A model generated the notes under the pieces. The model did no database searches. It had not been told where the DNA came from and was given only the letters and a program-made list of their open reading frames with translations. A stretch of DNA of 64,000 nucleotides from an uncultured Acidobacteriota bacterium (GTDB taxonomy: Bacteria; Acidobacteriota; Thermoanaerobaculia; UBA5066): positions 384,001-448,000 of the forward strand of contig CAVZYA010000001.1 of the NCBI GenBank assembly GCA_963779415.1, in the 5' to 3' direction. Below, in pieces: positions 37,826 through 62,098 of this stretch. Position 1 is the first letter of the stretch; every line of letters begins with the position of its first letter. The position numbers were made by a program, and so were the translations under genes.

Positions 37826-37865
37826 AACCGTTCCGTCTCCCGCGACGATAGAATCCGGAGCGGGA

Positions 37866-41408: not shown

Positions 41409-41428
41409 GATTCCGGGAGGAGAAGAGA

Positions 41429-42367: not shown

Positions 42368-43176
42368 GGAACTTCACTCGTCTGGCCTTTCTTCCGTGGA
42401 GCCTCGCGGTCACCGTCGTGTTCGCGAACGCGGCCGTCGCGCAGCAGGAGCCTCCGGCATGGCCGACGCCCCGGCCGGAGCCCGTTCAGCCGGAAGCGGC
42501 CCCGTCCGGACTCCGGCGCGTCACACTGGAGCCGACGCCCACCCTCACGCCGACGCCTCTCGTCCACCCGCACCTCATCGCGGCCCTGGAGACGACGGAG
42601 GGGAACGACACCGAGCGCGTGGCCCTCTTCGACGACGGGACGCTCGCTTTCGCCCAGTCGTATCGGGGCCACCGGACGGTCAAGCGGAAGGTCGTGACGC
42701 CCTCGGAGATCGACGTCATCCGCCAGGTTCTCGCTCCGGCGTCGGAGACCCGGGCGACGTGGGGATTGGCCGCGAGGCCTCCCGAGGAGATCGTGGGACG
42801 GCGGATCCGGATCGAGGTGACCGACGCCTCGGGACACCCGAGGGTCTTCACGACGGACGATCTGACGGCGCTTCCGCTCGCAATCGGCCGGGCCAAGGCG
42901 GCACTCGAGGATCTCCGGAGCCGCTTCTTCGAAACCGACCCGAAGGAGTTCCGGTGGAATCCCAGGAGCGTCAAGAAGGGAGACCGCCTGAGGAACCGGT
43001 CCACCGGGAGCTGGTACGTCGTCCTCCGCGACGACACCTTCGAGCAGGGTCTCGAGCTTCAGGAAGTGGGAGGGCTCCGGAACGAGATGCTGATCTCGCG
43101 CGACCAGATTCCGAAGCTGTTCGAAAACCCCGCCACTTCCGGGCCGCCCCCTCCGGCGGCGACGCCGGGCCGCTAG
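42364..43176 (+). CDS. Hypothetical secreted protein with Pro/Thr-rich linker
   Basis: ATG overlaps the upstream stop; signal peptide ending AVA-QQ; codon usage typical of the genome. Confidence 0.65.
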   Translation: MRNFTRLAFLPWSLAVTVVFANAAVAQQEPPAWPTPRPEPVQPEAAPSGLRRVTLEPTPTLTPTPLVHPHLIAALETTEGNDTERVALFDDGTLAFAQSYRGHRTVKRKVVTPSEIDVIRQVLAPASETRATWGLAARPPEEIVGRRIRIEVTDASGHPRVFTTDDLTALPLAIGRAKAALEDLRSRFFETDPKEFRWNPRSVKKGDRLRNRSTGSWYVVLRDDTFEQGLELQEVGGLRNEMLISRDQIPKLFENPATSGPPPPAATPGR

Positions 43177-43189
43177 GGGGAGAAGCGCC

Positions 43190-43723
43190 GTGGTACGGAT
43201 CACCGGAGGACGGTATCGCGGCCGGCGGCTCGACGTTCCCGCAAACGTTCGCCCGACGACCGAGATCGCGCGCAAGGCGGCGTTCGACATCCTCGGGAGC
43301 CGGATCCCGGGCGCCTCCGTCCTCGACGCGTGCTCCGGCTCCGGGGCCTACGGGCTCGAGGCGCTCTCGCGGGGAGCGGTCCGCGCAATGTTCGTCGAGA
43401 AGGAGCGTGCGGCGCGGGAGATCCTGCGACGAAACATCGAACGTCTCGGCGTCACGGCTCAATGCGCCGTGGAGGGGCGGCCGGTCGCCTCGTACGCCGC
43501 ACTCGCGCTCCGCGCGGATTCGCCGACGAGGTTCGACGTCGTCTTTCACGACCCTCCGTTCGAAGAGCCGTCGGACGAGGACCTCGGCCTCCTCCTTCGC
43601 CTTCTCGCGCGGGACGGCACGCTCGTCCACGAACGGGGCGACGACCGGATCCCCCGGACCGGACGAACCCCCGGGGACGTGCGTCGGTACGGCCGGACAC
43701 GGCTCCTCTTCTACCGGGCCTGA
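43190..43723 (+). CDS. rsmD: 16S rRNA m2G966 methyltransferase
   Basis: RITGGRYRGRRL, RPT, LDACSGSG..G.EALSRGA, DPPF, RRYG.T. Confidence 0.9.
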   Translation: MVRITGGRYRGRRLDVPANVRPTTEIARKAAFDILGSRIPGASVLDACSGSGAYGLEALSRGAVRAMFVEKERAAREILRRNIERLGVTAQCAVEGRPVASYAALALRADSPTRFDVVFHDPPFEEPSDEDLGLLLRLLARDGTLVHERGDDRIPRTGRTPGDVRRYGRTRLLFYRA

Positions 43724-43786
43724 AGAGAGAGCCTGCTGGTAAACTGCGCGCTTCGATCCGGGGCCGGACGGCCTCCGAGGAGCTTC

Positions 43787-44953
43787 ATGCCCATGAGCCG
43801 CACCGTCTTCACGTCCGAGTCCGTCACGGAAGGCCATCCCGACAAGATCGCCGACCAGATCAGCGACTCCATCCTCGACGCCATCCTGGCCGACGATCCG
43901 GCGGGAAGGGTCGCGTGCGAGACCCTCGTCACGACCGGGCTCGCCCTGATCGCCGGCGAGATCACGACGAAGACCTGGGTGGACATTCCGGCCATCGTCC
44001 GACAGACGATTCGCGACGTGGGGTACACGCGGGCGAAGTACGGCTTCGACTACGAGACCTGTGCCGTCATATCCACGATCGACAAGCAGTCGCCCGACAT
44101 CGCGCAGGGGGTCGACACGGGCGGCGCGGGGGACCAGGGGCTGATGTTCGGCTTCGCCGTGCGCGAGACGGAGGAGCTGATGCCGCTCCCGATCACGCTC
44201 GCGCACCAGCTCACGATGCGCCTCGCCGAGGCCCGGAAGACCCATGTCCTCGACTGGCTCCGCCCCGACGGGAAGAGCCAGGTCACCGTGGAGTACGAGG
44301 GAACGACCCCGATCCGGGTGGATGCCATCGTCGTCTCGACGCAGCACGCCGAGTCGGTCCCGACCGGCGAGCTTCGCGATGCGGTGCTCGAGGAGATCAT
44401 CAAGCCCGTCGTCCCGAAGGGAATGTTCGACGGACAGACGAAGGTCCACATCAACCCGACGGGTCGCTTCGTGATCGGCGGGCCGCAGGGCGACACGGGA
44501 CTGACCGGACGGAAGATCATCGTCGACACGTACGGCGGCAGCGGCCGGCACGGCGGCGGAGCCTTCTCGGGCAAGGACCCGACGAAGGTCGACCGGTCGG
44601 CCTCCTACATGGCACGGCACGTGGCGAAGAACCTCGTCGCCGCGGGCCTCGCCGACCGCGTCGAGGTGCAGCTCGCCTACGCGATCGGCGTCGCCGAACC
44701 GGTCTCGGTCCACGTGGAGACGTTCGGGACCGGGAAAGTCGACCCGGCGAGGCTTCCGGGCCTCGTCCGCGACCATTTCAAGCTGACGCCGCAGGGGATC
44801 ATCCAGTCCCTCGATCTTCGAAAGCCGATCTACCGGAAGACGGCGGCATACGGTCACTTCGGGCGCCGTCTCGCCGGGTTCACCTGGGAGAAGACGGACA
44901 AGGCCGAGGCGCTCGCCGCCGCGGCCGGGCTCTCCGTCCCGACGAACGCCTGA
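43787..44953 (+). CDS. metK: S-adenosylmethionine synthetase (start 43787 or 43793)
   Basis: [50 protein letters not shown]. Confidence 0.98.
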
Positions 44954-45003
44954 CACGCAGGGAACCGGGGCCCGCACGGCGATCTCGCGCTCTCCGAACT
45001 GGA

Positions 45004-45027
45004 ATCATGAAAACATGATTTCATGAT
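45004..45027. promoter_or_regulatory. Palindromic operator, probable SahR binding site(s), overlapping the sahR-ahcY promoter
   Basis: ATCATG-AAAA-CATGAT (45004-45019) plus overlapping AACATG-ATTT-CATGAT (45012-45027). Overall a 9-6-9 inverted repeat, 11 nt before GTG 45039. Confidence 0.8.
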
Positions 45028-45031
45028 ATAA

Positions 45032-47377
<2,346 letters not shown>

Positions 47378-47402
47378 CGGAGGCGCCAAGGGGGAGCGGC
47401 GT

Positions 47403-49745
47403 TCAGGTCTGCACGCCCGCGAGGCCCCAGGCCGCTCCCAGCCCGAACAGCAGATCGGCGGACCAGGCGGCGGCGGCGGGCGGAAGCGCCCCCGTCTCGC
47501 CGAGCTTGAGGAAGAGGCCACTCGCGAAGAAATAGGAGAGCCCGAGGAGGATCGCCACGCCGACCCCGGCGACCGCTCCGCGCTTCCCGAAGCGGAAGGC
47601 GAAGGGGAGGCCGACGAGAGTCAGGATGAGGGCGGAGAGGGCGACGGCGGGCTTCTGGTGAAGGCTCGTCGCGAGCCGGGCGACGTTTCCCCCCGCCCTC
47701 CGACGCGCCGCGATGAACCGGGCGAGCTGGGACGCAGTCATCTGGCGCGGATTCGCCTGCACCGAGGAGATCGACTCGAAGGCCTCGGGCGCCTCGAGAA
47801 GGAATTGCCCCTCCCGTGCCATGAAGAGCGAGTCGGCCCCGCCGATGAAGTTCCGGATCCAGCCGTTCTCCGCGAGGAGGCCCTGGCCCGGCAGGACCTG
47901 GGCCCTCGCCGCCGCCGCCCGGAGGCGGATCCGGAAAGTGGCGGGATCGACCTCCACCATCTGGAGGCCCGCGACGCCGCGCGTCTTCGGATCGAACGCG
48001 TCGACGGAGAAGAACCGGCCTCCCTGCCCGCGAACCCACCCGCTCGGGAGCGTCTGCGGGGGAGGGGAGGCTCCCTTCAGCCTGGCCTTCAGCGTCTCGG
48101 ACTCCGCGCTCGCCACGGGAACGACGCGCTCCGCGAGAAAGAAAAGGACGACTCCCGTGCCGGCGGCGAGAAGAAGGATCGGGGCCGCCAGGCGGAAGAG
48201 CGAGATGCCCCCCGCGAGGACGGCCGTCGCCTCGGAAGAGCGGACGAGGGCCGCCACCGTGATGAGGGCCGCCACGAGGAAGGCGAAGGGGAGGATGTCG
48301 ACGAAGATCGGCGGGAGGAGAGCCTCGTAGTAGGCCAGGAGAAGCCGGGCCGGCGGCTTCACCTTCGCGAGGTCGTCGGCGAACTCGAGGTAGTCGATCA
48401 GGACGTAGATGGCGACGAATGAGGCGACGACGAGGGCGAAGACGCGAAGGAACCGTCCCGACACGTAGCGGTCGAGAAGGTTACCGACACGCCTCGGACG
48501 GCGGACGCCGCGAGGCTCCGCCTCTCCGGGCGCCCGGGCGCTCCTCGCGGAGGGGGCGGAGAAAGTCCCCGACCGCTCGCCTCGCCGCAGCGAGATCGAC
48601 GGGAAGAGCGGACGGTCCTTTCGAACCCGGACGAGGGCCGCGACGCCGAGGATCGTCAGAAGGATGTCCGGGAGCCACATCGCCACCGCCGGTGAGACGT
48701 GGCCGTCGATGGCGCGCGCCTCCCCGATGGCCAGGAGCACGTAGTACCCGAGGACGATCACTACGGAGACGACGAAGCCGGCCGCGCGCCCTCCACGCCG
48801 CGTGACGAGGCCGAGGGGGAGCCCGACGAGGCCGAAAACGAGCGCCGCAGCCGGAAGCGCGAACTTCTTGTGAATCTCCACCCACGCGAGGCGTCGCTCC
48901 ACCTCGCTTCGGGCGCCGACCCGGGCCGTTCGGATGAGTTCGCCGAGCCGCTGCTCGCGAAGAAGCTTCTCCCGCGGACGGCTTGCGAGGGCCTCCCTCA
49001 CGCCGGTCTCCTGGAGGAGATACCGGACCGTCCCGAACGAGACGTCGTACTGGCGGGGGTTCGCCCCGACGTGATGGCTCGTCGCGTCGTCAAGCCGGAG
49101 CCAGAGCCGCCCCTCCTCCTCGTCGATCTCGAGTTCCCCGCGCGGCGCCAGTGTGAGCCGTTCACCCTCGTCCCCGGCGGAACGGTCGACGACGAAGAGC
49201 CCGGTGAGCTGCCGCCGGTCGGGGGCCGCGTTCTCAACGTAGATGCTCTTCCCGGCGAAATCGGGGCTGAAGACGCCGGGCGAGATCCGACGGGCCACGG
49301 CGAAGGTCAAAAGGCGAAGCCGCATCTCCGAGAGGAGCCGGTTCCCCCGGGGAACCGCCTCAAGGATCAGTAGCGACGTCGCCGCCGTCACGACGAGAGC
49401 CAACGCGGCGACGGGACGATAGAGCCGCAAAAGGTCGATCCCGGCTGCCCGGAGCGCGATCACCTCCGAGTCGGCGCTGAGCCGCCCGAAGGCGATGAGA
49501 AGCCCGAGCAGGAACGAAATGGGGAGGGTCAGAACGACGATGTGCGGCAGCGAGAAGGCCAGGACGCGAAACGTCTCGGCGAGCGGGTCCTCGCTCTGGA
49601 ACAGAAGGTCGGAGAAGAGGACCACGCCCCGGAGCAGCATGAAACCCGTGTAGGCCAGAAAGGCAACCGCGGTGGGGGCGGCGATCTCGCGAAGAAGGTA
49701 GCGGTCTATCCGCTGAGCGATCTGCACGCCCGATCTTAGCGGCAT
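47403..49745 (-). CDS. Fused LptF-LptG LPS export ABC permease
   Basis: Two tandem YjgP/YjgQ units (IDRYLLRE...SEVIALRAAG...EIHKKFALP; LDRYV...SSEATAVLAGGIS...LHQKP). Confidence 0.9.
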   Translation of the reverse strand: MPLRSGVQIAQRIDRYLLREIAAPTAVAFLAYTGFMLLRGVVLFSDLLFQSEDPLAETFRVLAFSLPHIVVLTLPISFLLGLLIAFGRLSADSEVIALRAAGIDLLRLYRPVAALALVVTAATSLLILEAVPRGNRLLSEMRLRLLTFAVARRISPGVFSPDFAGKSIYVENAAPDRRQLTGLFVVDRSAGDEGERLTLAPRGELEIDEEEGRLWLRLDDATSHHVGANPRQYDVSFGTVRYLLQETGVREALASRPREKLLREQRLGELIRTARVGARSEVERRLAWVEIHKKFALPAAALVFGLVGLPLGLVTRRGGRAAGFVVSVVIVLGYYVLLAIGEARAIDGHVSPAVAMWLPDILLTILGVAALVRVRKDRPLFPSISLRRGERSGTFSAPSARSARAPGEAEPRGVRRPRRVGNLLDRYVSGRFLRVFALVVASFVAIYVLIDYLEFADDLAKVKPPARLLLAYYEALLPPIFVDILPFAFLVAALITVAALVRSSEATAVLAGGISLFRLAAPILLLAAGTGVVLFFLAERVVPVASAESETLKARLKGASPPPQTLPSGWVRGQGGRFFSVDAFDPKTRGVAGLQMVEVDPATFRIRLRAAAARAQVLPGQGLLAENGWIRNFIGGADSLFMAREGQFLLEAPEAFESISSVQANPRQMTASQLARFIAARRRAGGNVARLATSLHQKPAVALSALILTLVGLPFAFRFGKRGAVAGVGVAILLGLSYFFASGLFLKLGETGALPPAAAAWSADLLFGLGAAWGLAGVQT

Positions 49746-49773
49746 CGTTCCGTGCCTCCCGCTTTCTCCGTCT

Positions 49774-49801
49774 ATGTCCGATAAGATTTATTATGTTAAA
49801 T
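49774..49801 (+). other. dif: dif site (XerC/XerD chromosome dimer resolution site)
   Basis: ATGTCCGATAA-GATTTA-TTATGTTAAAT has the 11-6-11 layout. The right arm is identical to the E. coli XerD arm TTATGTTAAAT and the left arm ends in ATAA. Intergenic AT island; gene orientation converges here. Confidence 0.9.
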
Positions 49802-49924
49802 TCAAGGACCAGACAACCGAATATTCTTCGAAAGGAAGAACGGGACCATGCCCCGCTCGCCCGAGGGATCCATCGTGCCGGTTCGGTCATGACGGCGGAG
49901 TGGCTTCCCGAAAACCCGTGCGGC

Positions 49925-50833
49925 TTACTTTCGTGGCTGAGCGGGCTTTGTCGGCGTCAGAAAGCGGCCGTCACGTGCGAGGTCGACATCCCCCTTTTCG
50001 ATTCGGCGAATGAGCGACCGAACTGCTTCGAGGATGTCGTCTCGCTTCTGCCCTTTTCCGTGGAAGACGAGGCTGAGCCGGTATCGGCGATCCTCGGGCA
50101 CGTAGTCGAGGCAGTAGTTCTTTCGCAGAGCGCCGTGCTTCGCCTTTTCCGGCCTGGCCGGATTCCTCTTCGCCTCGCGAAGCGTGTCGCGCGTGACGTT
50201 CTCGCCGGCGAGCCAGCTCTTCAGAGCGTCGAGCATGAGTTCCTCGGTCGGGAGCCTCCCGAGCTCGAGGAGGAACGACTTCGAAGCAATGTCGGCGCGC
50301 CGACATTCTTCCTTGACGAGGTCGGGAAGCCGGCCGATCGCGAGCGCTTCGGTCACGGAGACGCGCGACTTCCCGACCGCTTCGGCGATCTGCTCGTGCG
50401 TATACGCCCAGCGGTCCTTGAGGGCCCGGTAGCCGTCCGCCTCCTCGAAAGGCGTGAGGTCCTTGCGCTGGAGGTTCTCGACGAGTGCGACTTCCAGAAG
50501 CTCGCTGTCGGAGAGCTCCATTTCGATGCAGGGAATCTCCGCGAGTCCCGCCTCGATTGCCGCGCGATACCGGCGTTCCCCGGAGACGATCGTGAACCGG
50601 CCGTCCTCGCGGGGCCGGACGAGAATCGGCTCGAGGACACCTCGCGAGGCGATCGACTTCGTCAGCTCCTCGAGATCGCCGAGAGCCGTTCGCGGCTGGT
50701 CGGGATTCGCGTCGATGAGGTGGATTGCGATCCGCCTTCCGACGGGGATCTCGTCTGCGCGGACGAGCTGGTCCACGAAGTGGGAGTCGTGCCTCATACG
50801 CGACGTCTCGGGGAGTCCTCGTCTCCTAGACAC
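49925..50833 (-). CDS. ParB/Spo0J family CTPase DNA-binding protein
   Basis: GTG 50833 overlaps the parA stop. NPDQPR, L..SI...GVLEPILVR, SGERRYRAA, ENLQRKDL..FEEA, HTH YTHEQIAEAVGKSRVSVTEAL. Confidence 0.9.
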   Translation of the reverse strand: MSRRRGLPETSRMRHDSHFVDQLVRADEIPVGRRIAIHLIDANPDQPRTALGDLEELTKSIASRGVLEPILVRPREDGRFTIVSGERRYRAAIEAGLAEIPCIEMELSDSELLEVALVENLQRKDLTPFEEADGYRALKDRWAYTHEQIAEAVGKSRVSVTEALAIGRLPDLVKEECRRADIASKSFLLELGRLPTEELMLDALKSWLAGENVTRDTLREAKRNPARPEKAKHGALRKNYCLDYVPEDRRYRLSLVFHGKGQKRDDILEAVRSLIRRIEKGDVDLARDGRFLTPTKPAQPRK

Positions 50834-51590
50834 GGGCCAGTATCTCCTCTGTAAGGCTGTAGTATTCGAGCGCTCCGCTGGAGCGGGGCGAGAACGAGAA
50901 GATCGTCTCACGGTACGCGGGCGATTCCTCGAGCCTCACAGACTTCGAGATCGTCGTCCGGAAGAGCTTCCCCTTGAAGACCGCCTCGATCTGCTTCTTT
51001 ATGTCCTTCCCAAGAGTCGTCCGCTTGTCGTGGAGGGTGATCACGACACCGATGATCTGAAGATTCGGGTTCGGGCGGCTCTTGATTTTTTCGATCGTCT
51101 CCAGGAGATCGTCCGTTCCCTCCAGCGCGAAATACGACGACTGGATTGGGATGAGAATGTGAGTCGACGCGACGAGGGCGTTGACCGTGAGAATGCCGAG
51201 TGTCGGGGGCGTGTCGATGATGATCGCGTCGTAGTCGGGTCCGGCGCCGTTTCCCTTCTGGAGCTTGTCCTTGAGCCGGAAGAGCCCGTCGATCTCCCCT
51301 ACCAGCTTCGATTCGACCTTCGCCACCGAGATCCGCGACGGGGCGACGCAGAGCGAAGGCAGCGTCGTCTCCCGAACGATGGAGGAGAGCGCGACGTCCG
51401 GATCGATCAGGACGTCGTACATCGACCGCTCCACCGTGCGGCGGTCGAGAAAGGACATCGTGGAGTTCGCCTGGGGGTCCAGGTCGACGAGCAGCGTTCG
51501 AAGTTTCTTCTGGGCGAGCGCGGCCGCGACGTTGATGGCCGTGGTCGTCTTTCCGACGCCGCCCTTCTGGTTCGCTATCGTGATGATCAT
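50826..51590 (-). CDS. ParA/Soj family ATPase
   Basis: NQKGGVGKTT, DLDPQAN, IIDTPP.LG, SVRLEESP; no N-terminal HTH. Confidence 0.92.
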   Translation of the reverse strand: MIITIANQKGGVGKTTTAINVAAALAQKKLRTLLVDLDPQANSTMSFLDRRTVERSMYDVLIDPDVALSSIVRETTLPSLCVAPSRISVAKVESKLVGEIDGLFRLKDKLQKGNGAGPDYDAIIIDTPPTLGILTVNALVASTHILIPIQSSYFALEGTDDLLETIEKIKSRPNPNLQIIGVVITLHDKRTTLGKDIKKQIEAVFKGKLFRTTISKSVRLEESPAYRETIFSFSPRSSGALEYYSLTEEILARV

Positions 51591-51663
51591 GGAGACGCGG
51601 CGGGATGATATTCAGAGCGCGGTCTCCACGGCAAGCCCGAAGAGCGCCCCGAAGGCGCCTTCC

Positions 51664-52149
51664 TTACATCCGGTACTTTCCGAGTGCGTCCGGGTCGACT
51701 TCCTCGAGCCACTTCCGGAGGCGGGCCGTGTTCGAGCTGTCGCCGGAATCGTCGGTCCGGCGGCTCTTCTCGAGGACCCCCTCCTCGACGAAAACGGGCG
51801 CGTTCGTCCGGAGGGCGAGGGCGATGGCGTCCGAAGGGCGACTGTCCACGTGAACCTCGCGATTCGCGACGCGGAGATGTATCTGGGCGTAGAAGGTATT
51901 TTCCTCGAGTGCGTTGATCACGATACGGAGGACGTCCCCTTCGACTTTCTCGATGACGCTCTTGAGGAGGTCGTGAGTCATCGGACGAGGCGTCGTGACC
52001 CCTTCCATCTGGAGGGCGATGGCGTTGGCCTCGAAAATCCCGACCCAGATCGGCAGGAGGTTCTTCTCGGCATCGTCGCGAAGAATGACGACGGGCATGT
52101 TCGCGATCGGATCGACGATGAGCGCTTTGACTCCCATCCTGACGGTCAC
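51664..52149 (-). CDS. Bifunctional nuclease (DUF151/BFN) family protein
   Basis: LPIWVG.FEA.AI, RPMTHDL, DSRPSDAIALALR; RBS AAGGAGG. Confidence 0.9.
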   Translation of the reverse strand: MTVRMGVKALIVDPIANMPVVILRDDAEKNLLPIWVGIFEANAIALQMEGVTTPRPMTHDLLKSVIEKVEGDVLRIVINALEENTFYAQIHLRVANREVHVDSRPSDAIALALRTNAPVFVEEGVLEKSRRTDDSGDSSNTARLRKWLEEVDPDALGKYRM

Positions 52150-52170
52150 CAGTTCCTCCTTGTCGATACC

Positions 52171-52199
52171 AATCTAGGGACCGCCGACGCCGATTTCAA
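52171..52199 (-). promoter_or_regulatory. Sigma70 promoter TTGAAA-N17-TAGATT for DUF151-parA-parB
   Basis: -35 box at 52199-52194, -10 box at 52176-52171, 17-bp spacer, followed by a strong SD. Confidence 0.7.
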
Positions 52200-52234
52200 G
52201 GAACCGCGACGAAAGCAGAACATTCCTGGAAGTA

Positions 52235-52259
52235 TAAGCTATTTAATATCAAGTACTTA
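52235..52259. promoter_or_regulatory. IHF-consensus site within a TAAG-N17-CTTA AT-rich element
   Basis: TATCAAGTACTTA (52247-52259) matches WATCAANNNNTTR exactly, with an AT tract 5' of it. Confidence 0.6.
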
Positions 52260-52281
52260 GAGAGCAAGACGAGAGTAATTC

Positions 52282-53625
52282 TCAGCGATTCCCGGCGGCC
52301 TTTCCTGTCCGAAGGAGCCTCCCGAAGAGGGAGTTCGGATGACCTCGCTCGACGAGGACCGTCGCGAAGGTCCCTGGCCGGAGATCCACCTCCGTCTCCA
52401 CATTCGTCACGCGGTTGCACGGCGTCCGACCCGATGGGCGAATGCCGTGCCGGTCCTTCCCTTCCACGAGCACCTCGACCGTCTGTCCCTCGAATCCGCG
52501 GTTCAGCTCGCGCTGGATCTCCTGCTGCCTCTCCATCAGCCGGCCGAGGCGCGCCGCGGAGACGGAGGGCGTCACGTCGCTCACCCAGCGAGCCGCGGCC
52601 GTCCCCGGGCGTGGCGAGTAGCTGAAGGCGAACGCCTGCGCAAAGCGGACCTCTTCGAGAAGCGAGAGCGTCGCCTCGAAGTGAGCCTCGCTCTCCCCCG
52701 GAAAACCGACGATCACGTCGGTGGAGAGGGCGATCGCCGGGACCGCGCGACGGATCTCCGCGACGAGGTCGAGATACTCCCGCCTCGTGTACTGCCTCTT
52801 CATCCGGCGGAGCACCTCGTCGGCGCCGCTCTGGACCGGAAGATGGAGGGCCGGACAGACCCCGGGCGAGCCGGCCATCGCCCGGATCAGCTTCGACGAG
52901 AAGTCCCGCGGGTGCGACGTGACGAAGCGGAGACGCGCGAGGAGAGGAAGCGACGCGACGGCGCCGAGCAGATCCGCGAAGTCCTCTCCGGTCGTCGGAT
53001 CCCGGTACGCGTTCACGGTCTGACCGAGAAGCTCGATCTCGACGGCGCCTTCCTCGAGCAGCCGGCGGCTCTCGTCGACGACGTCGAGGAGCCGCCGATT
53101 CCGCTCCCGGCCCCGCGTGAACGGGACGACGCAGAACGTGCAGTTCTTGTTGCATCCCTCCACGACCGTGATCGCCGCGCGATGCCGGACCTCACGCGCC
53201 ACCGCGCCCGGGGTCCAGGCGACCTCGTCTTCGGGGAATCCCGTCTCGCACGGGCGGTCCGCTTCTTCCCGGACGCGCCGGAGGACGACCGGGAGCGCCT
53301 CGATGCGTCCCGTCCCGAGGACGAAATCGACGTGGGGCAGACGCGCGAGGAGCTTCTCCCCTTCCTGCTGCGCGACGCAGCCCGTGACGCCGAGAAGCAG
53401 ACCCGGCTTCTTCCGCTTCAGACGGGCGAGCCGGCCGAGACGCGCGTAGACCTTCTGCTCGGCCCGATCGCGGACGGAGCACGTATTGAGCAGGATCACG
53501 TCGGCGGCCTCGGCCCCGGCCGCCTCGTGGTAACCGTCCCGGGCCAGAAGTCCGACGAAGCGCCGGCCATCCAGCACGTTCATCTGGCAGCCCCACGTCT
53601 CGACGAAGACGCTTTTCAAGGTCAT
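52282..53625 (-). CDS. miaB: tRNA-2-methylthio-N6-dimethylallyladenosine synthase
   Basis: TWGCQMN, NTCSVR, GCVAQ, GCNKNCTFC, TSHP, HLPVQSG, TDVIVGFPGE, YSPRPGT, TRAM domain. Confidence 0.95.
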   Translation of the reverse strand: MTLKSVFVETWGCQMNVLDGRRFVGLLARDGYHEAAGAEAADVILLNTCSVRDRAEQKVYARLGRLARLKRKKPGLLLGVTGCVAQQEGEKLLARLPHVDFVLGTGRIEALPVVLRRVREEADRPCETGFPEDEVAWTPGAVAREVRHRAAITVVEGCNKNCTFCVVPFTRGRERNRRLLDVVDESRRLLEEGAVEIELLGQTVNAYRDPTTGEDFADLLGAVASLPLLARLRFVTSHPRDFSSKLIRAMAGSPGVCPALHLPVQSGADEVLRRMKRQYTRREYLDLVAEIRRAVPAIALSTDVIVGFPGESEAHFEATLSLLEEVRFAQAFAFSYSPRPGTAAARWVSDVTPSVSAARLGRLMERQQEIQRELNRGFEGQTVEVLVEGKDRHGIRPSGRTPCNRVTNVETEVDLRPGTFATVLVERGHPNSLFGRLLRTGKAAGNR

Positions 53626-54293
53626 CGGAGCCAGCCGGGAGGCGCTCCCGACTTTCGCGCATCCTCCTCGAGATCGTTGACCTTGGCCCGGGCGTCGTCC
53701 AGCTCCTGGCGCGCCTTCCCCAGCTCCTCCCGGGACTGGTCCCAGGCGGGGCGGATGACGCGGTCGCGGTAGTTCCCGTCGCTCCAGGCGTAGAAGTCGT
53801 TCTCGAGCTTCTTCGTCTCGGCCTCGAGGGAGGCGACTCTCGCCTCGGCCGCCGTGACGCGCCCGTGGGCCTGGCTCACGATCCGCCGCCACTCCGCCTC
53901 GGTTCGCCCGTTCAGGTCCCGGAGCTCGGGAATCACCACGGCGCCTGGCGTGGCCGTCGGCGCCGGCTTCGCCTTCGCGCCCCCCTTGGCGGGCGGGCTC
54001 GCCGGGCTCCCCTTCTTGAGGGTCTCGTTCGAGATCACGCCGAGCGAGGGGCGCTTCCCTTCCTTCTCGCGCTTCTCCTTCTGCTTTTTCGCGATGTCGG
54101 CGAGCGACCCGTTCCCCGTTCCGATCGGCCGAGCGGCGGTCCCGGGTGCCTGCGGAGCCGCACGCGGGGCCGGGGAGGGAGTCGGCGTGAAATCCGGCGA
54201 CGTCGCGGGAGCGGACGTCGATCCCGTCGCCGGCTCCTGCGCGGGCGCCGCGAGCGCCGCAAGCAGAAGTCCGAACGCCGCGACTCCTCTCAT
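53622..54293 (-). CDS. Hypothetical secreted coiled-coil protein
   Basis: Signal peptide, Pro/Ala linker, heptad region ending ARKSGAPPGWLR; ATGA-coupled on both sides. Confidence 0.7.
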   Translation of the reverse strand: MRGVAAFGLLLAALAAPAQEPATGSTSAPATSPDFTPTPSPAPRAAPQAPGTAARPIGTGNGSLADIAKKQKEKREKEGKRPSLGVISNETLKKGSPASPPAKGGAKAKPAPTATPGAVVIPELRDLNGRTEAEWRRIVSQAHGRVTAAEARVASLEAETKKLENDFYAWSDGNYRDRVIRPAWDQSREELGKARQELDDARAKVNDLEEDARKSGAPPGWLR

Positions 54294-54673
54294 GGAGCGG
54301 AACTCCCTTCGCGGCCGTACCGGTCCTCGAGACGGACGACGTCGTCGAGCTCGGGCGTCGAGACCTCGACGAGGAGAACGTCCCCGTCCGGGGCGTGCAT
54401 CCGGTGCCTCGTCCCCGGCGTCACGTGGAAGACGTCGCCGGGCGCGAGTCGGAGATCGGTTCGCGCCCCGTCCCGCTCGACGAGGAGCCCCAACGTTCCT
54501 TCGAGGACGTGGATCGTCTCTTCCTTCCGGACGTGGTACTGGAACGAGAGAGCCTCGCCATGCCGGATCCGGAGGAGTTTCCCGGCGTAGCGCCCCCCTT
54601 CCGCGAAGATCCGTTCCTCCCCCCACGGCTTCGGGACGACCCGCGGCCGCCCGACGGCGAACGGTCCGCTCAT
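54290..54673 (-). CDS. Cupin domain protein (mannose-6-P isomerase/ketol-isomerase-like)
   Basis: KPWG.E, SFQYH..KEET, HRM, EVSTPELDDVVRLED.YGR. Confidence 0.85.
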   Translation of the reverse strand: MSGPFAVGRPRVVPKPWGEERIFAEGGRYAGKLLRIRHGEALSFQYHVRKEETIHVLEGTLGLLVERDGARTDLRLAPGDVFHVTPGTRHRMHAPDGDVLLVEVSTPELDDVVRLEDRYGREGSSAP

Positions 54674-56457
54674 GCGGACACCGCCCTGAGGCGCCGCGAC
54701 GCCGGAAGGAGGTCGCGGAGCTCGAGCCCGAGGAGGGCCGAAACCTCTTCGGGGGTCGAGAGGGAGAGCGCTGCCTTGGCGACCCGCACCGCCTCCGAGA
54801 CGGCGATCTCGCGGGCGAACGCCTTGATGACCGGCACGGCGCGGGGACCCATCGAGAACTCCCGGATGCCGAGGCCGACGAGAAGCAGGAAGAGCTGTGG
54901 ATCGGCCGCCATCTCCCCGCAGACCGAGACGGGCTTCTTCGCGACGCGGGCCGCGTCGGCGACCCGGGCGATCAGCCGGAGAACGGCGGGGTGATCGGGA
55001 CGGAAGAGGTCGGAGACCGTCTCGTTGGCCCGGTCCACGGCAAGCGTGTACTGCGTCAGGTCGTTCGTCCCGAGCGCCATGAAATCGACCTCCGGCGCGA
55101 TGAGGTCGGCCGTGATCGCCGCCGACGGGACCTCGATCATCGCACCGAGCGGGACGGCTTCCGGGACCGGAATTCCGCGCTCGACAAGCTCGGTCCGCGT
55201 CTCGCTCAGCATGGTCCGGACGCGGCGCATCTCCTCCACTCCGGAGACCATCGGGACGAGGATGCGGAGATCTCCCGCCGGTGCCGCCATGAGGAGAGCC
55301 GCGAGCTGCGCCCGGAACATCTCGGGGCGGGCGAGGCTGAGACGCACGCCCCGGAGGCCGAGGACCGGGTTCATCTCGTCGGCGCCGACAACCTGACGCG
55401 ATCCCTTCTTGCCGCCGAGATCATAGGTCCGGATCACGACGGGGCGAGGGGCGAGCCTCCGAAGAACGTCGGCGTAGAAGGCCGCCTGCGACTCGACGTT
55501 GGGGACGTGGAGGTCTCCCGCCGCGAGATAGAGGAACTCCGACCGGAACAGCCCCACGCCGTCGGCTCCGTACTCGAGGACGTCGGCGGTCTCACTCGCC
55601 AGCTCGATGTTCGCGCGGACGGCGATCTCGACGCCATCCGTCGTCTCGGCGGTTCCGCCGACGCTCCGCTCCTTCAGGGACCTCTCGCGATGAGCCTCCT
55701 CGGCCCGGCGCTCGCGGAAGAGCCCGAGGATCTCCTCGGACGGCTCGCGCCAGACGATGCCGTCGCGCCCGTCCACGACGACGCGATCGTTCTCGCCGAC
55801 CGACTCGAGGAGCTTCGCCACGCCGACGACAGCCGGAAGGCCGAACGACCGCGCGAGGATCGCCGCGTGGGACGTCGGCCCTCCCCGCTCCGTCGCGAAG
55901 CCGACGACCCGGTCGCGCGGGATCCGGACGGCGTCGGATGGGGTCAGCTCGTCGGCGATCAGGACGATGGCTTCCCCCGCGAGGTCCTCGACCCGGAGAT
56001 GGCTGTCGCTCTCGTCGCCGAGGTGCCTCCGGACGATCCGTGCCACGTCGTCGAGGTCGGTGGCACGCAGCGCGAGGTTCTCGTCCGGAAGGTCCCGGAA
56101 CCTCGAGACCAGGCCCCGCGCCGTCGCTTCGACGGCCCACTCGGCGTTGACGGCCTCCTGCACGATCCGCCTTTCCACCGGGCCGACGAAGGCGCGGTCC
56201 TTGAGAAACATCGCGTGGGCGTGGAAGATCGCGGCGTACTCGGGCCCCAGCCGGATGGCGACCTGCGTCGCCGTGCTCTCGATCTCCTCGACGGAGGACT
56301 CCACCGCGCGGCGAAACCGCTCCAGCTCCGCGGAGATCTCCTCCGGCTCGAGCTGCCGGTGGGGCGCCGTATCCTCGCGCGACAGCCAGAGGACGGCCCT
56401 TCCGACGGCGACCCCCGGCGACACCGGAATCCCGCTGAGCGACAGTGCCCGCTTCAC
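54670..56457 (-). CDS. ptsI: PEP-protein phosphotransferase (PTS enzyme I, no GAF domain)
   Basis: GIPVSPG, GGPTSHAAILARS, GVGLFRSEFL, NPVLGLRG, MIEVP, GTNDLTQY, CGEMA. TAGAAT 7 nt before the GTG. Confidence 0.95.
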   Translation of the reverse strand: MKRALSLSGIPVSPGVAVGRAVLWLSREDTAPHRQLEPEEISAELERFRRAVESSVEEIESTATQVAIRLGPEYAAIFHAHAMFLKDRAFVGPVERRIVQEAVNAEWAVEATARGLVSRFRDLPDENLALRATDLDDVARIVRRHLGDESDSHLRVEDLAGEAIVLIADELTPSDAVRIPRDRVVGFATERGGPTSHAAILARSFGLPAVVGVAKLLESVGENDRVVVDGRDGIVWREPSEEILGLFRERRAEEAHRERSLKERSVGGTAETTDGVEIAVRANIELASETADVLEYGADGVGLFRSEFLYLAAGDLHVPNVESQAAFYADVLRRLAPRPVVIRTYDLGGKKGSRQVVGADEMNPVLGLRGVRLSLARPEMFRAQLAALLMAAPAGDLRILVPMVSGVEEMRRVRTMLSETRTELVERGIPVPEAVPLGAMIEVPSAAITADLIAPEVDFMALGTNDLTQYTLAVDRANETVSDLFRPDHPAVLRLIARVADAARVAKKPVSVCGEMAADPQLFLLLVGLGIREFSMGPRAVPVIKAFAREIAVSEAVRVAKAALSLSTPEEVSALLGLELRDLLPASRRLRAVSA

Positions 56458-56490
56458 GCGCCTGATTCTACGTTGCAGCCCCGGCGCGTT

Positions 56491-56760
56491 CTATTCGCTC
56501 TCGTCGAACCGCCGCTCCACGAGTTCCTTGACCGACGCCACGGCGTCCACCTCGTCGGGTCCGTCCGCCCGAAGCAGAAGAGTCGACCCTTTGCTCGCGG
56601 CGAGCAGAAGGAGGCCCAGGATGCTCTTGGCGTCCACCTCGTCGCCGTCCCGCGTCAGGGTGAGGCGGGAGGAAAATCCGGCCGCCGCATGAACCAGCTT
56701 GGCGGCCGCCCGCGCGTGAAGGCCGAGACGGTTCCGAAGGACGAGCGTCTCCTCGATCAC
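56491..56760 (-). CDS. ptsH: Phosphocarrier protein HPr
   Basis: GLHARAAA (His15) and DAKSILG (Ser46). Confidence 0.95.
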   Translation of the reverse strand: MIEETLVLRNRLGLHARAAAKLVHAAAGFSSRLTLTRDGDEVDAKSILGLLLLAASKGSTLLLRADGPDEVDAVASVKELVERRFDESE

Positions 56761-57206
56761 GCCGTTGTCCCGCCCGGGCCCCCGACGAGGTCCGTCGCCG
56801 CGACGATCGCCCGACGCCCCCTTTCGACCAGGACCTTCGCGATCTCTCCGGCCGTCTTCCCCTCCTGTGCGATGGACCGCGCCCGGATCATCATCGCGAG
56901 ATTCACGCCCGAGACGATCTCCACCCGTCCGGGCTCGAGGAAGGCGAGGGCGAGGTTCGACGGCGTTCCGCCGAAGAGATCGGTCAGGAGCACCACGCCC
57001 GCTCCGCGATCGGCGGCGGCGATCGCCTTCTCGAGCCGGCGGCTCGCCGTCTCCGGCGCCTCGTCCCATTCCAGAGAGAGGACGCCCACGTCCCCGGCTT
57101 CGTCGGGCTCGAGGCGCAGAAGCGTCTCGCGGAGGGCGGAGGCCAGCGGCCCGTGGGAGAGGAGGAGGAGGCCGACAGGCGGACGGGACGTCCCGGAGAG
57201 CGCCAT
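56757..57206 (-). CDS. PTS mannose-class EIIA domain protein
   Basis: LLSHG.LA, LTDLFGGTPSN, GVNL.M. Confidence 0.9.
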   Translation of the reverse strand: MALSGTSRPPVGLLLLSHGPLASALRETLLRLEPDEAGDVGVLSLEWDEAPETASRRLEKAIAAADRGAGVVLLTDLFGGTPSNLALAFLEPGRVEIVSGVNLAMMIRARSIAQEGKTAGEIAKVLVERGRRAIVAATDLVGGPGGTTA

Positions 57207-57207
57207 A

Positions 57208-58074
57208 TCAGCCGCTCGCCTCGTCGCGGTGGGTCACGCGCACCGGATAGCCGAGGGCCACGATGTCCCGGGCCAGCCGCTCGGCGATGTAGATGGAGCG
57301 GTGGCGCCCTCCCGTACAGCCGATTCCGACGGTCAGGTACGCGCGGTTCTCGCGGCGATAGTTCGGGAGGCACCACGACACGAAGTCGAGGAGGCGGCGA
57401 TAGAACGGCTCGGTCAGCTCGCCCGCCTCGATGAAGCGGGCCACGTCCGGGTCGCGGCCCGTCCGGGGCCGGAGGAGAGGGTCGAAGTGGGGATTCGCCA
57501 GGAACCGGACGTCGAGACAGATGTCGACCGGCGGAATCCCGTGCTTGTAGCCGAACGAGACGATCGACACGGCGAGCTCTCCCGGATCGCCCGGCTCGCG
57601 AAAATGCTGGCCGACGGCGGCACGCAGCTCGTGGACCGTCATCCCGCTCGTGTCGATGACGAGGTCCGCCGTCTCCTTGACGTCCCGGAGGATCCTCCGC
57701 TCGAGAGCGATCGCCTCCGTGAGCGTTCGCCCTTCGGCCAGCGGGTGCGGCCGGCGCGTTTCTGAAAAGCGGTTGAGGAGCATCCGGTCCTCGCAGTCGA
57801 GAAAGAGGACGCGGGTCGGGACCCGTCGCCGGATCGACTCGAGAAGGGCCGGAAATCTCTCCGCGAAGTCGGGGTTCCTCACGTCCAGGACGACCGCGTT
57901 CTTCGCGCGCGGCATCCGCCCGGCCGCGACCTCCTCGACGAACTCCGAGAAGAGCGTGAGCGGCAGGTTGTCCACCGTCGCGTACCCCACGTCCTCGAGC
58001 GCATGGCCGACGTAGGACTTCCCGGACCCCGACAGACCCGTCACGACAAGAAGCTGACCCTCTCCGGAGCTCAT
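57208..58074 (-). CDS. rapZ: RNase adaptor RapZ (YvcJ)
   Basis: TGLSGSGKS, DNLP, RFSETRRPHP, SFGYKHG, DVRFL.NP, GCTGGRHRS. Confidence 0.95.
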   Translation of the reverse strand: MSSGEGQLLVVTGLSGSGKSYVGHALEDVGYATVDNLPLTLFSEFVEEVAAGRMPRAKNAVVLDVRNPDFAERFPALLESIRRRVPTRVLFLDCEDRMLLNRFSETRRPHPLAEGRTLTEAIALERRILRDVKETADLVIDTSGMTVHELRAAVGQHFREPGDPGELAVSIVSFGYKHGIPPVDICLDVRFLANPHFDPLLRPRTGRDPDVARFIEAGELTEPFYRRLLDFVSWCLPNYRRENRAYLTVGIGCTGGRHRSIYIAERLARDIVALGYPVRVTHRDEASG

Positions 58075-59090
58075 CGCATCCGGACCCTCGCGAGCGTCCG
58101 GCGCTTCTGCCGGCCGGTCCGGAACCGGTCGGCCGCGGCCTTCCGGGCGATCTCGTCGTGGACCTTCGCCGCCATCTCGCGGGCCGCATGGTAGCCGCGG
58201 CGGCGGAGGAGCTGGTTCCGGACGGCGATCTCGACGAGGAGCGCCACGTCCCGCCCCGTCGCCACCGGCATCGTCACCTTCGGAACGGCGACGCCGAGGA
58301 TCTCCTGCGACTCCTCGTCAAGGCCGAGGCGGTCGTACTCGCGCCCTTCGACCCAGTGCGTCAGGTGGATGACGAACTCCACCGTGTGCCGCTCGAGAAC
58401 CGCGGAGATTCCGAAGAGCATCGGGACGTTCACGATACCGAGGCCGCGAAGCTCCATGTGGTGGCGGATGAGGCCCGACGAGGAGCCGACGAGGACCTCG
58501 TTGGGGAACCGCTGGATGACGACGAGGTCGTCCGCGATCAGCCGGTGCCCCCGCTGGATGAGGGCCAGCGCGCATTCGCTCTTCCCGACGCCGGAGTCCC
58601 CGAACAGGAGGACGCCGAGCCCCCCGACCTCCATCAGGACTCCATGCATCGTCACCCGCGGCGCGAGAGATTCCTCGAGGAAGGCCGTGAGCCCTTCGAT
58701 GATCGTGCTCGTCATCCGGTCCGTCACGAAGAGGGGGACGGCCCGGCGCCGGCAGAAGTTGACGAGCGTCGGAAGCGGCGAAATCCCCTTCGTCACGACG
58801 ACGCCCGACAGAGGGAGTGCCGTGAAGGCGTCGAGCCGCTCGCGAGCGACCGCGGGGGACAGGGTCTTCAGGTACCCGAACTCGCTGTTGCCGAGTATCT
58901 GGACCCGGTTCGGCTTGATGTAGTCGAGGTAACCGGCGATCGCGAGTCCGGGCTTCTGCACGCGCGGCCATTCGATCGGGCGGTCGAGCCCCTTCTGCCC
59001 GGCGACGAGCTTCAGGCCGAGGGACGCGAGCGCGGGGGACCGCAGGTCACCGATCCGTACGGAGGGGCGGGTCTCGTCGGCGGGGATCAT
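58071..59090 (-). CDS. hprK: HPr(Ser) kinase/phosphorylase
   Basis: QKPGLA.AG, RVQILG..E, HGVLMEV, GDSGVGKSE, LIADD, MELRGLGI. Confidence 0.95.
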   Translation of the reverse strand: MIPADETRPSVRIGDLRSPALASLGLKLVAGQKGLDRPIEWPRVQKPGLAIAGYLDYIKPNRVQILGNSEFGYLKTLSPAVARERLDAFTALPLSGVVVTKGISPLPTLVNFCRRRAVPLFVTDRMTSTIIEGLTAFLEESLAPRVTMHGVLMEVGGLGVLLFGDSGVGKSECALALIQRGHRLIADDLVVIQRFPNEVLVGSSSGLIRHHMELRGLGIVNVPMLFGISAVLERHTVEFVIHLTHWVEGREYDRLGLDEESQEILGVAVPKVTMPVATGRDVALLVEIAVRNQLLRRRGYHAAREMAAKVHDEIARKAAADRFRTGRQKRRTLARVRMR

Positions 59091-59094
59091 CGGA

Positions 59095-59634
59095 TCACTC
59101 GGGAACGACGATGCCGACCCGACCGTCGCGCCGGCGGTAGAGAACGCGAAGCGCCGCATCCGCGCCGAGATCCCGGAAGACGAGGACCTCGCGGTCCGAC
59201 TCCTGGAACGCCGTGAGCGCGTCCTCCTCGAACATGGAACGGGAGGGCGAAGTCTCGCGGCGCGTCCCCGCCGGTCTCTCGCTCCGTCCCGTCTCGGCCT
59301 CGGGCCACACCTCGGGACGGCGAACGGAAGGCCGGGAGCGCTTCTTCTCTTCCCGGACCAGCGCCTTCGTCTTCTTCACCTGCCCCGCGATCCGGTCCAT
59401 CACCTCCTGCGCCGCGGTCCGCTGGTCGGGACCGCTCGCGGTCGCCTTCCAGGTCCGGTTCGCCCCGACGACCGCCACCTCGACCGCGACGTCGTTCTTC
59501 TCACGGCGGACGGCGACGTGCGCCTGCGCGGCGCGTGGAAAGAAGCGCTCCAGCTTCGCGAGCTTCCCGGCCACGACGTCCTCGAGCGAAGGATGGATGC
59601 GGATGCGCCGGGCGACGTACACGGTCTTCATCAT
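59095..59634 (-). CDS. hpf: Ribosome hibernation promoting factor, long form
   Basis: KL.KLERFF N-domain and C-terminal M..E.A......VFR....V.YRRRDG..G domain; follows rpoN. Confidence 0.85.
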   Translation of the reverse strand: MMKTVYVARRIRIHPSLEDVVAGKLAKLERFFPRAAQAHVAVRREKNDVAVEVAVVGANRTWKATASGPDQRTAAQEVMDRIAGQVKKTKALVREEKKRSRPSVRRPEVWPEAETGRSERPAGTRRETSPSRSMFEEDALTAFQESDREVLVFRDLGADAALRVLYRRRDGRVGIVVPE

Positions 59635-61319: not shown

Positions 61320-61357
61320 GTTGCGTTGGTCCGGCCTTTGCTTAGACCAGTTGGATT

Positions 61358-62098
61358 CTAGTCCAGGCGGAACCGTTCGCCGAGGTAGACGCGCCGTACC
61401 TCCGGGTCCTCCGAAAGGGCCGCCGGCGAGCCGGCGCGGAAGATGATCCCCGCGTTGATGATGTACGCCCGGTCGGTGATCGCGAGCGTATCGCGGACGT
61501 TATGGTCCGTGATCAGGACCCCGATCCCCCCCGCCGCGAGGTCGCGGATCACCTGCTGGAGGTCGAGGACGGTGATCGGGTCGATCCCCGCGAAGGGCTC
61601 GTCGAGGAGCATGAACTGCGGCGTCAGCGTGAGTGCCCGGGCGATCTCCAGCCGGCGCCGCTCGCCTCCCGAGAGGGTGTCCCCGACGGAATGAGCCAGG
61701 TGCGAGAGCTTGAACCGGTCGAGAAGCTGGTGCGCTCGAGCCTCCCGCTCCTCGCGGTCGAGAGGGAGCGTCTCGAGGATCGCGAGCAGGTTTTCGACGG
61801 CCGTGAGCTTGCGAAAGACCGAGGCTTCCTGAGGCAGATAGCCCATCCCCCGGCGCGCCCGCCGGAACATCGGAAGGGACGTGACGTCCTCCCCGTCGAG
61901 CCGGACGCGGCCCGAATCCGGCGCCACAAGGCCGACGACCATCGAGAAGGTCGTCGTCTTTCCGGCTCCGTTCGGGCCGAGGAGGCCGACGACCTCCCCT
62001 CCCGTGACGGAAAGGGAGACGCCGTCCACGACGCAGCGTCCGCGATAGCTCTTCCGGACCTCGGCGACCTCGAGAAGGGGGCCCGTGCCGTCGCTCAC
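61358..62098 (-). CDS. lptB: LPS export ABC ATPase
   Basis: [56 protein letters not shown]. Confidence 0.95.

Follow-up and report, generated by a model that had tools for sequence, protein, structure and literature searches.

Analysis of a 64-kb stretch from the genome of an uncultured bacterium of the phylum Acidobacteriota (G000:C1:384001-448000; this whole stretch is called the window below) showed a ParABS-type gene module located directly beside a dif-like XerC/D recombination site. The genome comprises 4.36 Mb in three contigs with 68% G+C, and among named genomes its closest relatives are metagenome-assembled Thermoanaerobaculia. On the minus strand the order is miaB, BFN (DUF151), parA2, parB2, dif and lptFG (Table 1); the suffix 2 distinguishes the pair from the canonical parA1 and parB1 genes of the same genome, and we call a perfect palindrome within parB2 the parS2 candidate. 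We consider it probable that the module is a terminus-specific ParABS-type system which exists beside an ordinary origin system and possesses its own centromere, the DNA binding and the function being deduced from sequence comparisons. ParABS is the textbook machine for origin segregation, and handling of the terminus is ascribed to the unrelated, lineage-restricted proteins MatP and ZapT together with FtsK/XerCD.

The original prediction, which was made from the letters of the window, had placed a Soj-type ParA and a ParB with an intact GERRYRA motif among core genes (miaB, lptFG), ending 123 bp from dif, and had noted a lack of rep and integrase genes, an atypical recognition helix, an unusual N-terminal peptide, a slightly lower G+C content and the absence of canonical parS. 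Each of these observations held on re-examination, the two proteins and dif lying exactly where they had been located; for parB the gene was right and the start codon was not. The proposed start of the open reading frame (ORF) at 50911 is too early, as orthologous ORFs open only about 21 codons in. The start is the GTG at 50833, which overlaps the parA2 stop (gene overlap of 8 nt) and is preceded by GAGGAG; the resulting protein of 302 amino acids agrees with the recorded gene call (P0001, 302 aa) and with the orthologues. The distance of 123 bp is that between dif and the parB2 stop codon (49925-49927).

Table 1. Features of the terminus-proximal par locus and related genes, with positions in the window.
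Feature	Position	Strand	Description
miaB	ORF 52282-53892	-	TIGR01574 449 bits (cut-off 355)
BFN/DUF151	51664-52149	-	PF02577 5.8e-42, 142.5 bits (cut-off 27)
parA2	50826-51590	-	Soj-type ParA ATPase, 254 aa; AAA_31 3.4e-53 (180.6 bits), CbiA 1.2e-26
parB2	49925-50833	-	ParB-CTPase, 302 aa; ParB_N 1.7e-26, HTH_ParB 1.2e-12, TIGR00180 1.3e-42
Coding region of ParB2 N-terminal peptide MSRRRGLPETSRMRHDSHFVDQL	50765-50833	-	Presumed ParA2-binding motif
parS2 candidate	50290-50305	unstranded	Perfect 16-bp palindrome TGTCGGCGCGCCGACA within parB2, codons C-R-R-A-D
dif-like XerC/D site	49774-49801	+	28-mer ATGTCCGATAA-GATTTA-TTATGTTAAAT
Fused lptF-lptG	47403-49745	-	780 aa; TIGR04407 residues 13-372, TIGR04408 residues 423-775
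XerD	25959-26822	+	TIGR02225 343 bits (cut-off 329.6)

By its sequence, ParB2 is a ParB-CTPase of a lineage distinct from the origin ParB. The GERRYRA and VENLQRKDL motifs are intact, and the scores are 92.5 bits for PF02195 (cut-off 26.3), 145.6 bits for TIGR00180 (cut-off 58.45) and 48.3 bits for HTH_ParB. Residues Q46, P47 and R48, G85, E86, R87, R88 and A91, and E119, N120 and R123 show no variation among 18 orthologues. Where ParB1 has GKDRATVANAL as its recognition helix, ParB2 has GKSRVSVTEAL. An AlphaFold2 (AF2) model of ParB2 (mean pLDDT 81) has a confident N-terminal domain and helix-turn-helix (HTH) region (helices 128-223), a disordered linker and, at 240-280, a C-terminal strand-strand-helix unit, which is the predicted dimerisation domain; its best geometric fit is to the Caulobacter ParB-parS structure 6t1f (TM 0.83-0.85). 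In ParA2, the deviant Walker A motif KGGVGKT (K9-T17), D36, D38, D126 and R219 in SVRLEESP are invariant in 18 orthologues, R219 being what we take to be the counterpart of the DNA-binding Arg of Soj. At the N-terminus, ParB1 has the motif ALGRGLSALIP and ParB2 the peptide KRRGLP...MRHDxHFV, of which the seven positions G6, L7, P8, M13, R14, H15 and H18 are invariant in 18 class-wide orthologues. An N-terminal ParB peptide is described as both required and sufficient to bind ParA (PMC12462528).

The module lies at the replication terminus. The core of the dif site, GTCCGATAA-N6-TTATGTTAAAT, begins at 49776 (site 49776-49801, GTCCGATAAGATTTATTATGTTAAAT) and is single in the genome, where the next-best match has 4 mismatches over the 20 specified bases. 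Its right arm TTATGTTAAAT is identical, in 11 of 11 bases, to that of E. coli dif in the form given by Kono et al. 2011 (PMC3025954). The cumulative G-C skew of contig C1 has its maximum at 417 kb and its two-line breakpoint at 430 kb, with dif at 433.8 kb, about 4 kb off the breakpoint. The XerD gene is found 24 kb from dif inside the window, so that the terminus region holds both recombinase and site; another Xer gene (314 bits) is located at C2:390838-391719, about 35 kb from the origin-proximal parS. The sequence features of an XerCD/dif system are thus all present: one site of 28 bp made up of two 11-bp arms around a 6-bp spacer, a skew switch and Xer genes. When up to 3 mismatches in 20 are allowed for relatives, 39 of 41 loci from the order and 16 of 20 from the class have a dif-like site no more than 1 kb from the parB2 3′ end, at times in varying orientation; its conservation beside parB2 was counted in 40 of the 41 loci from the order. 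The distance between parB2 and dnaA, as a fraction of the circle, is 0.496 in G028, 0.489 in G082, 0.497 in G109, 0.495 in G159 and 0.416 in G059, and that between parB2 and parA1 is 0.47-0.50 in G062, G068, G092 and G136, the latter calculated with rounded chromosome lengths for three of the four genomes. All nine single-contig chromosomes examined therefore carry parB2 at 0.42-0.50 of the circle from dnaA or parA1B1.

A search with PF02195 gave exactly two ParB genes in the genome. The canonical arrangement rsmG-parA1-parB1 is present on contig C2 near the skew minimum at 438 kb, and the sole canonical parS of the genome (up to 2 mismatches) is found at C2:426158, between rsmG and parA1 (locus L001, around position 578). 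At the same tolerance, the 64-kb window contains no canonical parS. In five of five single-contig relatives tested, ParB1 is encoded 9-16 kb from dnaA. ParA2 is 39% identical to ParA1, and ParB2 is 49% identical to ParB1 over residues 40-174 only. The parB2 locus lacks the hallmarks of an origin-type system, having no oriC-proximal canonical parS and no rsmG or dnaA neighbour.

The parS2 candidate was found by collecting k-mers common to the loci; besides dif, the palindrome TGTCGGCGCGCCGACA stood out. It is part of the parB2 gene, and 489 bp separate it from the end of the dif site; in the 4.36 Mb of the genome there is 1 exact copy, none with 1 mismatch and 2 with 2 mismatches (the reversed-genome control also gave 2). 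With a single parS and a single parS2 candidate, each ParB apparently has exactly one site on the chromosome. All 40 order-level orthologues with the residues CRRAD encode them as TGT CGG CGC GCC GAC, a choice which codon usage predicts for about 1.9% of cases per locus, and the Ile codon that follows may be ATC, ATT or ATA. In the 41st locus the residues are CRHAD and the palindrome differs by one base at its centre. Judged by this codon choice, the palindrome is shown here to be under selection at the DNA level.

Outside the order the site keeps its arms and changes its centre or its place. In other families the two central bases vary (CG, AT, GT/AC, CC/GG, AG/CT, AA/TT). The palindrome is relocated to the gap between BFN and parA2 in L049 (two copies), L053, L058 and L060-L063, where the protein differs at the CRRAD spot, and a Polarisedimenticolia locus has it about 40 bp from dif, 46 bp past parB2. 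In the 14 genomes of family f5 for which both can be placed on one contig, 41-68 kb separate the site from parB2, and the distance is 22 kb in G109 and 230 kb in G082, which is still in the terminus region; site-dif adjacency is therefore not obligatory. The f5 palindrome immediately follows a stop codon, within an AT-rich intergenic context that is conserved (L144-L149, around 9300-9800), and the dif-like site is 3-5 kb from parB2 in the two f5 loci where it was found (L045, L046). With up to 2 mismatches, the palindrome is absent from the parB2 loci of f5, of f13 and of a genus without ParA2 (see below). No site was found in G058 (f13) or in Acidiferrales-type loci, in the latter case within 4 kb.

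The presence of the site follows that of the protein. The pattern TGTCGGCNNGCCGACA occurs in 139 of 151 genomes of the class, compared with 1 of 151 for the reversed pattern, with one copy in 120 genomes, 2-5 copies in 19 and none in 12 (hand tally). Among 301 genomes of the phylum it occurs in 131 (control 8), and a cross-tally by hand gave 130 of 175 ParB2-positive genomes versus 1 of 126 ParB2-negative ones; in the lone ParB2-negative genome the centre is non-palindromic. Where there are several sites these cluster by parB2, with four within 53 kb in G308, three in G258 and two each in G405, G247 and G299.

ParB2 is readily told from canonical ParB, with matches of 213-714 bits versus about 100-120 bits. 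In the order 37 of 41 genomes have it (the remaining four being 65%, 83%, 96% and 51% complete), in the class 150 of 151 (at least 90% complete; E ≤ 1e-45; the exception is G142) and in the phylum, by hand tally, about 175 of 301 (E ≤ 1e-43), the other 126 giving only matches of 1e-37 or weaker. These counts include G025, G030, G154, G213 and G302 as single rows, and L043 (G030) is one alignment row; none of the conclusions depends on these five genomes by themselves. Named lineages with ParB2 loci are Thermoanaerobaculia, Vicinamibacterales, Blastocatellia/Pyrinomonadaceae, Ca. Polarisedimenticolia, Ca. Aminicenantes (complete chromosome CP070750.1) and Ca. Acidiferrales. All 41 loci from the order have parA2 upstream of parB2 (one of them is cut by a contig end), as do 17 of 20 from the class, and at every ParB2 locus examined outside genus g36 and genome G041 a ParA2 of 56-94% identity is retained. 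The single ParB match of G041, a 2.0 Mb genome of the class, scores 174 bits, which is nearer to ParB2 than the scores of canonical ParBs are (L044, G041:C65); the 8 kb read there contains no ParA2, BFN, dif-like site or palindrome. In metagenomes, at least 4888 clusters among the 8000 candidates scored match at E ≤ 1e-40 and bear generic names only, so an abundant ParB2 system has been overlooked so far.

A tree of 115 rows places all 50 ParB2 sequences sampled from the phylum in one clade (SH-aLRT 99), whose internal groups follow taxonomy, and the 13 ParB1 sequences from the phylum in a cluster (89) among canonical chromosomal ParBs. For shared genomes the ParB2 subtree is congruent with the ParB1 subtree, and identity bands track taxonomy. 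Duplication of ParB1 within the phylum is disfavoured: forcing ParB1 and ParB2 into one clade costs 71.5 log-likelihood units (approximately unbiased test, p-AU 0.012), in a comparison that used a quick tree and a group named after inspection of the tree. The sister group of ParB2 consists of three non-acidobacterial sequences (L092, L103, L100), two of which are encoded on mobile-element-like contigs, one with Phage_rep_O-like and HNH genes and the other with a resolvase. Each of the three loci has a perfect 16-bp palindrome (L092:4430, TGTCAGACGTCTGACA; L103:4427, TGTCGGACGTCCGACA; L100:4741, TATCCGACGTCGGATA), inside parB at about the place of parS2 in L092 and L103 and a few bases past the parB ORF (3884-4735) in L100. 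A recent plasmid origin was rejected on comparison with PLSDB, whose best-ranked plasmid ParBs show 32-40% identity (85-124 bits) and in which all 4061 matching records are below 60%; ParB2 is no closer to these plasmid ParBs than to its own ParB1. The locus also does not look like an integrated mobile element, as there is no integrase or rep gene in the 12 flanking ORFs scanned, only one dif-like site, and presence in nearly the whole class.

These results also answer the further expectations of the original prediction, namely that a separate canonical parAB exists elsewhere in the genome, that the window is terminal and not origin-proximal, and that the ParB clade is dif-adjacent and vertically inherited; all three were confirmed, and the clustering with plasmid ParBs that would have spoken for a mobile cassette was not seen. 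The alternative it had offered, a domesticated plasmid or phage cassette integrated at dif, agrees with the data as an ancient origin, given the mobile-like outside relatives and the position between BFN and dif described below, and fails as a recent insertion.

A natural variant of the module is found in genus g36 of the class, for which many single-contig genomes exist. Here the order is BFN-parB2-dif with no parA2 in between, and in five of five complete genomes a search for ParA2 returned only the origin ParA (34-36% identity). The N-terminal peptide of ParB2 is absent from both g36 loci that were read (L057, L059). A 14-mer related to the palindrome, GTCGGCCGGCCGAC, has 4, 6, 9, 6 and 5 copies in the five genomes, versus 1, 0, 0, 0 and 2 for the reversed control. 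Of these 30 sites, 29 are no further from parB2 than 13.5% of the chromosome length; fractional distances average 0.059 versus 0.25 expected, and none of 200,000 simulations gave a value as low. Because the five genomes belong to one genus, their sites are not independent from genome to genome; within each genome, nevertheless, the clustering is plain. Related sites are spread over 0.3-1 Mb around the terminus. Since g36 has kept ParB2 at dif without ParA2 or the peptide, ParB2 must have a role that is independent of ParA2.

The gene upstream of parA2, which may belong to the par system, encodes a BFN protein, a putative nuclease related to TM0160 (1vjl, 8e-31). Of the 41 loci from the order, 40 have this gene upstream of parA2, and of the 20 from the class, 19 have it upstream of the par genes; it is present in 268 of 301 phylum genomes, including families without ParB2. 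In ParB2-negative genomes a dif-like site was found 44-757 bp downstream of BFN in 10 of 20 loci (L162, L165, L170-L177; reversed control 0 of 20), and in complete ParB2-negative genomes 187-227 bp downstream in three of four evaluable cases (G332, G268, G340). No BFN-adjacent dif-like site was found in families f35 (0 of 4), f73 (0 of 2), f28 and f38. BFN is linked to dif in its own right, and since the two are neighbours in many ParB2-negative genomes the par cassette sits exactly between them; this position is consistent with ancient capture at dif or with ancestral presence followed by loss. The C-terminal tail of BFN (51664-51720), L(R/K)KWLEExxPExLGKYxM, follows a variable acidic linker and resembles a docking peptide; its residues G157, Y159 and M161 are invariant in 20 sequences.

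The surroundings of the module are those of a core chromosomal region. Among the 12 flanking ORFs scanned (33968-47535 and 54670-63999) there is no integrase or replication gene; 11 of them have Pfam matches, and that at 46108-47535 has none. The flanking genes include guaA, a Na+/H+ antiporter gene, dnaE, metK, an ArsR-methyltransferase gene, ptsI, an EIIA gene, rapZ, hprK, rpoN and an lptA-like gene. The lptFG start codon is about 30 bp from the dif site. The module has a G+C content of 0.627 versus 0.692 and 0.698 in the flanks. As a sign of recent transfer this was rejected, because the module is slightly lower in G+C than its flanks in 18 of 19 class-level loci, which makes the low value an old property of these genes. 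A repeat search of 46000-55000 gave only GC-rich noise besides a perfect 17-nt inverted pair (48210-48226 and 50598-50614), 2.4 kb apart, one arm falling within lptFG and its counterpart within parB2 (codons RPREDGR); for a 9-kb stretch of this genome the pair exceeds chance expectation. Nothing in that search could be matched to the paired motif which the original prediction mentions. Promoter and terminator matches at the locus are weak consensus matches and were given no weight.

By analogy with known ParABS systems, the module could work as follows. ParB2 dimers would recognise parS2, about 0.5 kb from dif, and would close as a CTP (cytidine triphosphate)-dependent clamp that slides over neighbouring DNA including dif, so that a single complex marks the terminus. 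Through its N-terminal peptide, ParB2 would engage and stimulate the nucleoid-bound Soj-type ATPase ParA2. If the terminus behaves like a low-copy plasmid, a single cargo on a ParA carpet would be held at mid-nucleoid and two cargos would be driven apart; the unreplicated terminus would then reside at mid-cell, and sister termini would be separated after replication and decatenation. In such a position dif could be presented to FtsK and XerCD at the septum.

The module combines traits of several known systems. Similar to origin Soj/Spo0J-parS, it has a Soj-type ParA, a full-length ParB-CTPase (N-terminal peptide, GERRxRA, ENLQR, HTH and C-terminal beta-beta-alpha unit) and a 16-bp palindrome with TGT...ACA ends, and in B. 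subtilis spo0J, too, parS is found inside the parB gene. Unlike origin ParABS, it is located at the terminus by dif, differs in recognition helix, site and N-terminal motif, and coexists with an origin system. With low-copy plasmid ParABS it would share one centromere, one partition complex and a nucleoid-bound ParA, as proposed here from the genes, and its outside relatives look plasmid- or phage-borne; unlike those systems it is chromosomal, vertically inherited across the phylum and placed among core genes, with the chromosome terminus as its proposed cargo. The several palindrome copies confined around dif in g36 are reminiscent of MatP/matS. This multi-site layout was seen in g36 only, the genome of the window having one site, and MatP is an unrelated protein that is no ParB-CTPase; in most of the lineages compared there is one site, together with a ParA partner. 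Like Noc and its binding sites (NBS), ParB2 is a second chromosomal ParB paralogue with an altered palindromic site, and Noc structures are among its best matches. Membership of the Noc family was rejected (139.3 bits versus a TIGR04285 cut-off of 315); ParB2 moreover has a ParA partner and sites in the terminus region, where Noc sites are scarce. KorB of RK2, a ParB-CTPase clamp that acts in regulation, matches ParB2 weakly (2e-13). ZapT of Caulobacter is a MerR-type protein unrelated to ParB. It reportedly binds the terminus and links it to the Z-ring (PMC7858052).

Several explanations compete with a terminus-specific partition system. ParB2 might mainly be a MatP-like landmark or organiser of the terminus which condenses or insulates the dif region and may recruit or evict the divisome, FtsK/XerCD, SMC or BFN, with ParA2 as an accessory that fine-tunes position. 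This has some appeal in view of g36, which keeps ParB2 at dif without ParA2 or peptide and has 4-9 sites across the terminus region, of the small site clusters around parB2 elsewhere (G308, G258, G405, G247, G299) and of the nearby BFN and XerD genes. Still, parA2 overlaps parB2 and is conserved at all loci examined outside g36 and G041, and the N-terminal peptide is among the best-conserved parts of ParB2; this constraint on ParA2 and peptide argues that the interaction with ParA2 is central in most lineages, and we judge the landmark role as the main function to be unlikely. That ParB2 is a KorB-like autoregulator or local transcription factor, for which the palindrome would be an operator of BFN-parA2-parB2 or of lptFG without any role in chromosome mechanics, we regard as very unlikely. 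The position of the palindrome between BFN and parA2 in several families is operator-like, there is a weak promoter-like match upstream of parA2, and KorB is a structural relative. Yet in the gene order of the window the site is in the middle of a coding sequence, in f5 it occupies an unrelated, conserved place between genes at a distance of 22-230 kb, and in g36 the sites are dispersed over up to 1 Mb; an operator would also leave unexplained why the gene is positioned at dif, opposite dnaA, in nine of nine single-contig chromosomes.

Least credible to us is that the module is a selfish or relic partition cassette at dif, left by a plasmid, a phage or a mobile, Xer-exploiting integrative element (IMEX) and devoid of a present chromosomal function. 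The adjacency to dif and the G+C content below that of the flanks would suit such an element, as would the nearest non-acidobacterial ParBs, of which two of three are beside Phage_rep_O-like and HNH genes or a resolvase, each with an intragenic palindrome. The cassette moreover fills precisely the gap between BFN and dif, two elements that directly adjoin each other in 13 of the 24 ParB2-negative genomes examined. A relic of this kind is contradicted by the lack of an integrase or rep gene in the flanking ORFs scanned, by the single dif-like site, which leaves no flanking pair, by intact orthologues in at least six named acidobacterial lineages with relationships that track taxonomy, and by strong purifying selection on catalytic motifs and DNA site. 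It fits the ancient origin of the module and not its present state.

The preferred reading as a terminus-specific partition system has weak points of its own. The f5 site is 22-230 kb from parB2 and not beside dif, and 45 of the 175 ParB2-positive phylum genomes, including Acidiferrales-type loci and G058, do not have the pattern, the cross-tabulation for the phylum being a hand tally. About 126 of 301 phylum genomes do without ParB2, and the genomes compared are kin, so that counts overstate independence. In G059 parB2 is at 0.416 and not 0.5 of the circle, and one of six sites is 2 Mb away. Loss of ParA2 in g36 implies that ParA-driven movement is dispensable at least there, and the palindrome could be bound by a protein other than ParB2.

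A more far-reaching version of the partition reading, which we put forward tentatively as a distinct possibility, is that the chromosomes of many Acidobacteriota have two orthogonal centromere systems. The one at the terminus would derive from a plasmid- or phage-type parAB cassette, with the centromere inside parB, that was captured between BFN and dif in an early acidobacterium, became core, and actively holds and then splits the termini; in one genus the ParA motor would have been dropped, leaving a multi-site, MatP-like CTP-clamp organiser.

Literature searches gave no description of a terminus ParABS system. Section 5 and the term passages of a 2025 survey of the ParB-CTPase fold (PMC12704722) contain no mention of Acidobacteria and no passage on the replication terminus or a second parAB, and its supplements could list such proteins. 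New here is a candidate centromere, TGTCGGCGCGCCGACA, for a terminus parAB. The proposal is testable, as it offers a defined 16-bp site, a peptide-ATPase pair and a natural multi-site variant without ParA, and the second ParB/parS pair, which is presumably orthogonal to the canonical one, may serve for labelling of DNA loci. The presumed history of the module suggests a route by which partition cassettes of mobile elements become core functions of a chromosome. The findings point to an undescribed handling of the chromosome terminus in Acidobacteriota; if the reading is true, the end of the chromosome would be treated as a plasmid-like cargo, a solution different from those of MatP and ZapT.

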